Positions 55,504-56,205 of a stretch of 64,000 bases of DNA are shown here, one piece after another. Made by a program: the position numbers and the translations under genes. The notes under the pieces are model-generated. The model was not told the DNA's origin and did not search any database. It was given only the letters and a program-made list of their open reading frames with translations. This stretch comes from Escherichia coli. GTDB lineage: Bacteria; Pseudomonadota; Gammaproteobacteria; Enterobacterales; Enterobacteriaceae. Where the stretch lies: the NCBI RefSeq assembly GCF_003790525.1, contig NZ_CP033635.1; one strand, written 5' to 3'. Each line of letters begins with the position of its first letter. The stretch's first letter is position 1.

Positions 55504-55518
55504 GTTACAATATAACAT
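55504..55518 (+). promoter_or_regulatory. Zur box (zinc uptake regulator operator) in the zinT promoter
   Basis: Palindrome tgttacaatataaca, matching the Zur-box core TGTTATAWTATAACA. Confidence 0.7.
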
Positions 55519-55554
55519 TACACATCATATACAATGACTCTGGAGGAAACTGTT

Positions 55555-56205
55555 TTGGCGATTCGTCTTCACAAACTGGCTGTTGCTTTAGGTGTCTTTA
55601 TTGTTAGCGCTCCTGCCTTTTCGCATGGTCATCACTCACACGGCAAACCCTTAACAGAGGTCGAACAAAAAGCTGCTAATGGTGTTTTTGATGATGCCAA
55701 TGTACAAAACCGAACGCTCAGTGACTGGGATGGAGTCTGGCAATCCGTTTATCCTTTACTGCAAAGTGGCAAACTTGACCCCGTCTTTCAGAAGAAAGCG
55801 GATGCAGATAAAACTAAAACATTTGCTGAAATTAAAGATTATTATCACAAAGGTTATGCAACAGATATTGAGATGATTGGCATTGAGGACGGCATTGTTG
55901 AATTCCATAGAAATAATGAAACAACATCCTGTAAATATGAGTACGATGGATACAAAATACTCACCTATAAATCAGGCAAGAAAGGCGTTCGTTACTTATT
56001 CGAATGTAAAGATCCTGAAAGCAAAGCCCCTAAATATATACAATTTAGCGATCATATAATTGCACCACGAAAATCATCTCATTTTCACATTTTTATGGGT
56101 AATGATTCACAGCAATCTTTATTAAATGAAATGGAAAACTGGCCAACGTATTATCCATATCAGTTGAGTAGCGAAGAAGTGGTCGAGGAAATGATGTCTC
56201 ATTGA
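55555..56205 (+). CDS. zinT: periplasmic zinc/cadmium-binding protein ZinT
   Basis: ORF 55534..56205; RBS GGAGGA at 55542-55547 then TTG at 55555 gives 216 aa [23 protein letters not shown]^HGHHSHG (His-rich N-terminus). Confidence 0.85.

Follow-up and report, generated by a model that had tools for sequence, protein, structure and literature searches.

The zinT start region of Escherichia coli: a very probable TTG start codon downstream of a polymorphic in-frame ATG

Introduction

At which codon does translation of zinT (yodA) begin in those strains of Escherichia coli that carry two in-frame start codons downstream of the Zur operator of this gene? The question is raised by a stretch of 64,000 nt of E. 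coli DNA (NCBI RefSeq GCF_003790525.1, contig NZ_CP033635.1), referred to as the window in this text, with all coordinates counted from its first nucleotide. A mechanical list of the open reading frames of the window gives a 223-aa product for this gene, because the ATG at position 55534 is the start codon that comes first after a stop in this frame; it was chosen there for no other reason. A TTG (55555-55557) lies 21 nt downstream of this ATG in the same frame and would yield a product of 216 aa. A preliminary description of the same DNA had proposed the TTG as the actual start and had located the Zur-box palindrome, the ATG at 55534, a GGAGGA motif at 55542-55547 and the TTG at 55555; all of these coordinates were found correct when read directly from the sequence. 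The features needed for the choice between the two codons are as follows.

55534-55536, plus strand: in-frame polymorphic ATG, at which the mechanical ORF of 223 aa begins; the functional start most likely lies elsewhere
55542-55547, plus strand: Shine-Dalgarno (SD) sequence GGAGGA, 7 nt upstream of the TTG
55555-56205, plus strand: zinT (yodA) coding sequence with TTG start, 216 codons plus stop; the RefSeq CDS coordinates map to 55555

The evidence gathered here makes it very probable that zinT starts at TTG 55555 and not at the upstream ATG, and that the region as a whole is an ordinary Zur-regulated zinT start region. The TTG start is already the standard reference annotation of zinT, and the conclusion as such contains nothing new.

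Results

The locus and its annotated start

A 1-kb query around the zinT start was present in 5,417 of 5,426 complete genomes and was 100% identical to the sequence of strain SMS-3-5 and of many other strains. The gene order at the locus is hiuH-msrP-msrQ-zinT-yodB. K-12 (b1973; NP_416482.1; PDB 1S7D, 1OEE) shares the msrQ-zinT-yodB context, the TTG start, the SD sequence, the 20-bp Zur operator and the length of 216 aa, and differs from the window by a TTA in place of ATG 55534, leaving it without a competing upstream start, and by a few further SNPs, located in the leader and in the sequence flanking the Zur box on its upstream side. The zinT CDS in RefSeq comprises 651 nt (216 aa) and begins at the base equivalent to 55555. 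This 216-aa TTG form is annotated in SMS-3-5, K-12 MG1655 (b1973, whose first codon is TTG), W, 2013C-4187, APEC O18, Ecol_881, GmF052 and an ST131 strain, and the annotation pipeline PGAP picks the TTG even in SMS-3-5 and W, which carry the ATG. The start codon proposed in the preliminary description is in agreement with b1973 of K-12, with the PGAP annotation of eight strains and with PDB 1S7D, and the reference length of 216 aa which it had given for ZinT is likewise borne out by the K-12 annotation and the PDB entry. A different model is found in the reference annotation of O157:H7 Sakai, where ECs_2711 (NP_310738.2; NC_002695.2, 2666029-2666700) is given as a 223-aa ATG form of 672 nt, starting from the same upstream in-frame ATG, and sequences of both 216 aa and 223 aa occur among the GenBank and UniProt entries for ZinT.

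Two further observations concern the neighborhood of zinT. The spacer between msrQ and zinT contains a REP-like, GC-rich palindromic element at 55297-55362 (GCCGGATGCGGCG...CCTATCCGGCCTAC), which reaches 35.8 bits against the Rfam family naRNA4 and remains below its gathering score of 59.5; apart from this sub-threshold, REP-derived match upstream, an Rfam scan of 55250-55750 returned no leader RNA element. The downstream gene yodB (56518-57078 in the window) is over-extended in a similar way: its mechanical ORF runs from a TTG at 56518 and codes for 186 aa, and the RefSeq CDS (531 nt, 176 aa) starts at ATG 56548 with the product MNRFSK....

Initiation signals at the two codons

The alternative that has to be weighed most carefully is that ATG 55534 serves as main start, or as a substantial co-start, in the strains carrying it (the window and O157:H7 among them), yielding a precursor of 223 aa whose signal peptide would measure 30 aa. 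As an initiation codon, ATG is intrinsically stronger than TTG. The ATG is in frame with zinT, is followed by no stop before the TTG, is used in the Sakai reference annotation and in many database entries, and would probably be part of the transcript if transcription starts near 55518-55523, where it would lie in an A/U-rich stretch. Nevertheless, we consider this alternative highly improbable, and the first reason lies in the sequence that precedes the codon. Pairing of the 3' tail of 16S rRNA with the 20 nt upstream of each start gave a duplex energy of -9.3 kcal/mol for the TTG and of +2.7 kcal/mol for the ATG, upstream of which the best SD match covers only 2 of 6 positions. In a scan of 55505-55575, the GGAGGA motif was the only site with an anti-SD energy at or below -4 kcal/mol. 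The leader, folded from three candidate 5' ends, is predicted to adopt a modest structure (-13.6 kcal/mol) without clear significance. The use of the ATG as a leaderless start was also considered and rejected, as the codon does not lie at the predicted 5' end, from which it would be separated by some 11-16 nt.

Signal peptide and mature protein

The ZinT sequence of the window matches the NCBIfam equivalog NF007639 (ZinT/YodA metal-binding protein) with 432.9 bits at a cutoff of 300, and the alignment relates residues 11-223 of the long ORF to positions 2-214 of the model, leaving the N-terminal extension MTLEETV uncovered. PDB entry 1S7D, a chain of 216 aa beginning with MAIRLYK, aligns to residues 8-223 of the long ORF, and the protein of the window differs from it by two substitutions (H6Y and E129D in 216-aa numbering). 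The mature chain of 193 aa in PDB 1OEE aligns to residues 31-223. The crystallized mature chains (1OEE and others) start with HGHHSHG, corresponding to residue 31 of the 223-aa form and to codon 24 of the 216-aa form, which divides the gene product as follows.

55555-55623, plus strand: signal peptide of 23 aa, with the initiator TTG read as fMet; the mature PDB chains begin at codon 24
55624-56202, plus strand: mature periplasmic ZinT of 193 aa with the His-rich N-terminus HGHHSHG

The signal peptide and the His-rich mature N-terminus that had been expected of a TTG start are thus both present. The 23-aa signal peptide consists of an n-region MAIRLHK with a net charge of +2, an h-region and the residues A-F-S before the cleavage site, followed by HG; by inspection it has the positive n-region, the hydrophobic core and the small residues at -3 and -1 of a Sec signal peptide. 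The extension MTLEETV brings in two acidic residues and lowers the net charge of the n-region to 0 in the 30-aa version, a neutralization which speaks against initiation at the ATG. Note that the precursors made from the ATG and from the TTG are cleaved to the same mature HGHHSHG... protein, and N-terminal proteomics of mature ZinT, which had been suggested as a check, cannot discriminate between the two starts for this reason.

Polymorphism of the ATG within Escherichia

The upstream ATG is a variable feature of the species. K-12 reads ...ATACATTAACTCTGGAGG... where the window reads ...ATACAATGACTCTGGAGG..., and the codon corresponding to the ATG is TTA in K-12. An alignment of eight E. coli strains showed the ATG in the window and in strain W only and a TTA in the other six; an ST131 strain also has TTA at this position. 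A comparison of the 41 nt from 55515 to 55555 over 5416 genomes gave 2000 sequences identical to the window, 1866 differing at one or two positions and 1550 differing at three or more. The K-12 version of the 41-mer with TTA occurred unchanged in 1372 of the 5416 genomes, and all four strains read from the class with three or more differences had TTA as well. In Sakai, whose gene model starts at the ATG, the 41-mer is 95.1% identical to that of K-12, as expected of the variant of the window. From the identity classes and the sampled sequences, rather than from a full count, the share of the ATG among 5,416 complete E. coli genomes is estimated at about 37-47% and that of the TTA at 53-63%. Outside the species, Escherichia sp. 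MOD1-EC7003 has ATA at the position of the ATG, and E. albertii has an unrelated leader sequence there without any ATG. The frequency of the ATG in E. coli may be taken as a point in favor of its use; its absence from K-12, from most E. coli and from the other Escherichia sampled points in the opposite direction, as does the choice of the TTG by PGAP in SMS-3-5 and W.

Taken by itself, this stretch of 41 nt, which leads from the Zur box to the TTG, is unusually polymorphic in E. coli, with 37% of the genomes identical to the window and 29% carrying at least three differences. The adjoining 34 nt (55537-55570), comprising the SD sequence, the spacer, the TTG and the first five codons, were identical in 4038 of the 5416 genomes and one base off in 1377, and hence identical or different by a single base in 5415 of them. 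The one-base variant that was read is a C to T change in the spacer between the SD sequence and the start codon, and the nine other E. coli strains read all have GGAGGA and TTG in unaltered form (9/9). As a separate observation, the zinT gene of strain ETEC6333 (NZ_CP122600.1) is interrupted by a transposase of the IS3 family about 19 codons into the gene, and zinT accordingly carries no annotation in that strain.

Start regions of zinT in other genera

A scan with one genome per species retrieved 80 loci encoding relatives of ZinT, each of which was checked for in-frame starts, an SD sequence and a Zur box, and the 51 loci from Enterobacterales with a recognizable His motif, representing about 35 species, were analyzed. 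The best start was TTG in 26 of these loci, GTG in four and ATG in 21, and the signal peptide had a length of 23 aa in 34 of the 51. In most loci a hexamer that matches the SD sequence at four or more of its six positions precedes the aligned start by 5-8 nt, the usual spacing being 5 or 8 nt. The start codon follows the end of the Zur core at a distance of 26-39 nt, except at four identical loci of one Serratia strain, which have no good Zur match. Additional starts in the same frame, downstream of the Zur box and ahead of the chosen codon, turn up only sporadically and have poor SD scores.

The approximately 30 loci sharing a 23-aa signal peptide of the type 'L-A-x-x...' start with TTG (26 loci) or GTG (four loci) and in no case with ATG. 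At least 12 genera are represented (Escherichia, Salmonella, Citrobacter, Atlantibacter, Enterobacter, Phytobacter, Yokenella, Superficieibacter, Silvania, Lelliottia, Huaxiibacter, Pseudocitrobacter, Serratia), across which the leader and the codons around the conserved TTG or GTG diverge freely. The zinT genes of the Buttiauxella, Cedecea and Pantoea type have an ATG start and a different N-terminus. In Atlantibacter, Phytobacter and UBA3516 (the genome of an uncultured member of the Enterobacteriaceae), an in-frame stop codon lies just upstream of the aligned TTG or GTG, which is therefore the sole start codon yielding a signal peptide in these species. As judged from the sequences compared, the architecture of the start region is conserved, consisting of a Zur box with a putative -10 element, a leader of about 30-35 nt, an SD sequence, a weak start codon and a signal peptide of 23 aa. 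Only with the TTG as its start does the window conform to this plan. The polymorphism of the ATG and the conservation of the position of the TTG across genera constitute stronger evidence than the spacing of the operator, from which the preliminary description had argued.

In the same scan, Serratia sp. DD3 has four identical ZinT-like loci on four contigs, with an ATG start, a 26-aa signal peptide and a Zur core with six mismatches, and these copies may be either real multi-copy loci or the result of an assembly duplication. Fragments of zinT with 99% identity to E. coli were also found on short contigs of MAGs labelled as Bacillota and Bacteroides, most likely as a consequence of binning contamination.

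The Zur operator and the promoter

The region upstream of the two codons contains the following elements, the second and third of which are predictions.

55503-55522, plus strand: Zur operator, two-dimer site, an exact match to TGWNAYRWTATAWYRTNWCA; the same 20 bp are present in K-12
55503-55511, plus strand: candidate extended -10 element TGtTACAAT within the Zur box, proposed by analogy with znuABC and predicting a transcription start near 55518-55520
55488-55493, plus strand: possible -35 element TTGCAT, which would pair with TATAAC at 55511-55516 at a spacing of 17 bp

The core of the operator is the palindrome ATGTTA-CAATA-TAACAT (ATGTTA-N5-TAACAT) at 55502-55518, which matches ATGTTAYANTATAACAT exactly, with zero matches expected in shuffled sequences. 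The pattern TGWNAYRWTATAWYRTNWCA was defined on structural grounds by Gilston et al. (2014; PMC4219657) for the binding of two Zur dimers; its match at 55503-55522, with no mismatches and as the only exact match in the 64 kb, is partly circular, the pattern having been derived in part from the zinT operator itself. The older 23-bp consensus for Zur of gamma-proteobacteria, GAAATGTTATANTATAACATTTC, gave no match with up to three mismatches, because the site has four of them (counted by eye at 55499-55521), which are confined to the outer flanks and position 10.

In K-12, Zn-Zur binds PzinT as two cooperative dimers and with very high affinity (Kd-app 0.053e-18 M^2), and zinT is repressed about 984-fold (PMC4219657). 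The same study describes an extended -10 element inside the Zur box of znuABC and the occlusion of a core promoter element by Zur at all its targets in E. coli; the targets znuABC, ykgM/L31p and pliG have a pseudo-palindromic, AT-rich Zur box matching TGWNAYRWTATAWYRTNWCA over the core promoter (Gilston et al., 2014; PMC4219657), and zinT shares this type of box and probably its position. In the window, both candidate -10 elements (TGtTACAAT and TATAAC) lie inside the Zur box, and TTGCAT at 55488-55493 is invariant in eight E. coli strains. A scan for the sigma-70 consensus called no promoter over the Zur box, but it misses TATAAC as well as the extended -10 reading because it requires a T at position 6 of the -10 element plus a scored -35 element. 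A second promoter built on TACAAT at 55530-55535 was discarded: it has no -35 element, K-12 has TACATT in place of the hexamer, and transcription from it would begin within the SD sequence. The full texts searched yielded neither a mapped transcription start nor a direct measurement of the initiation site nor a start-codon experiment for zinT/yodA, and a paper on ZinT of O157:H7 contained nothing on the start codon or the signal peptide.

It might also be supposed that the zinT promoter is located well upstream of the Zur box, for example at TTGTCA-18-CATAAT (55392-55421), with Zur acting as a roadblock. The position of the operator would say nothing about the leader in that case, and the TTG would remain the start by virtue of its SD sequence. 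The consensus scan indeed contains this promoter-like site with 10 of 12 matches; since it found six sites in total versus 3.8 expected by chance, the site at 55392-55421 is weak evidence. An upstream promoter is very unlikely in view of the extended -10-like TGtTACAAT in the Zur box, whose consensus itself encodes TGnTATAAT, of the occlusion of core promoters reported for the E. coli targets of Zur, and of the tight spacing of 26-39 nt between Zur core and start across genera, among which the sequence further upstream of the core is, unlike this spacing, not conserved.

With the promoter placed inside the Zur box, the argument from the operator can be put more precisely. The palindrome ends 16 bp before the ATG (55534 - 55518 = 16), as had been noted. 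The operator probably extends 4 bp beyond the palindrome toward the gene, which would leave 11 nt before the ATG. The claim that this leaves no room for a leader and a ribosome-binding site was accurate insofar as there is no ribosome-binding site (+2.7 kcal/mol), and overstated with respect to the leader, for which 14-16 nt would be available with a transcription start near 55518-55520, because the position of the operator alone does not fix the start of transcription.

Discussion

The data are consistent with the following view of the zinT start region. Zinc-loaded Zur would occupy the operator at 55503-55522 as two dimers and, since the operator contains the likely -10 element, would block RNA polymerase. 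As zinc becomes scarce, Zur would leave the site and transcription would start just past the operator, as we infer near 55518-55523, giving a leader of about 30-37 nt to the TTG and of about 11-16 nt to the ATG. The GGAGGA at 55542-55547 within this leader would set the ribosome on TTG 55555, and the resulting 216-aa precursor would lose its 23-aa Sec signal peptide by cleavage after AFS to become the 193-aa periplasmic zinc-binding protein with the N-terminus HGHHSHG. On this view, some lineages of E. coli would carry ATG 55534 as an incidental variant of the 5' leader, which is in frame by chance and therefore misleads longest-ORF gene calling. On the strength of the comparisons made, this codon most likely goes unused; SD-independent initiation at the AUG may still take place at a low level in ATG-bearing strains and would be phenotypically almost silent. 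The 223-aa ATG model is very likely a longest-ORF artefact, and the evidence assembled here argues against the form given in the Sakai record of ECs_2711.

The conservation of a non-ATG start behind a good SD sequence across several genera invites the question of whether the weak codon has a function of its own. Genes with weak non-ATG start codons that limit expression are known, such as cyaA (TTG) and infC (AUU), and zinT resembles them in its TTG start; a comparable expression-limiting role in zinT is only conjectural. It is conceivable, if rather unlikely, that the TTG has been kept by selection for weak initiation and is not an accident. If so, the weak start could cap translation and the load on the Sec system when the promoter is derepressed about 1000-fold, and the output of ZinT could differ slightly in the scattered E. 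coli lineages that have the in-frame ATG upstream.

The biology of ZinT is not affected by the choice between the two start models, because both give the same mature protein. The relevance of the result is one of annotation hygiene only, as the 223-aa model survives in the Sakai reference and in some entries of GenBank and UniProt. Beyond this, the locus may serve as a teaching example of how a within-species SNP can give a 5' leader an upstream ATG that is in frame and misleads gene callers, and of how comparisons within the population and across genera can resolve the question of the start codon without an experiment.
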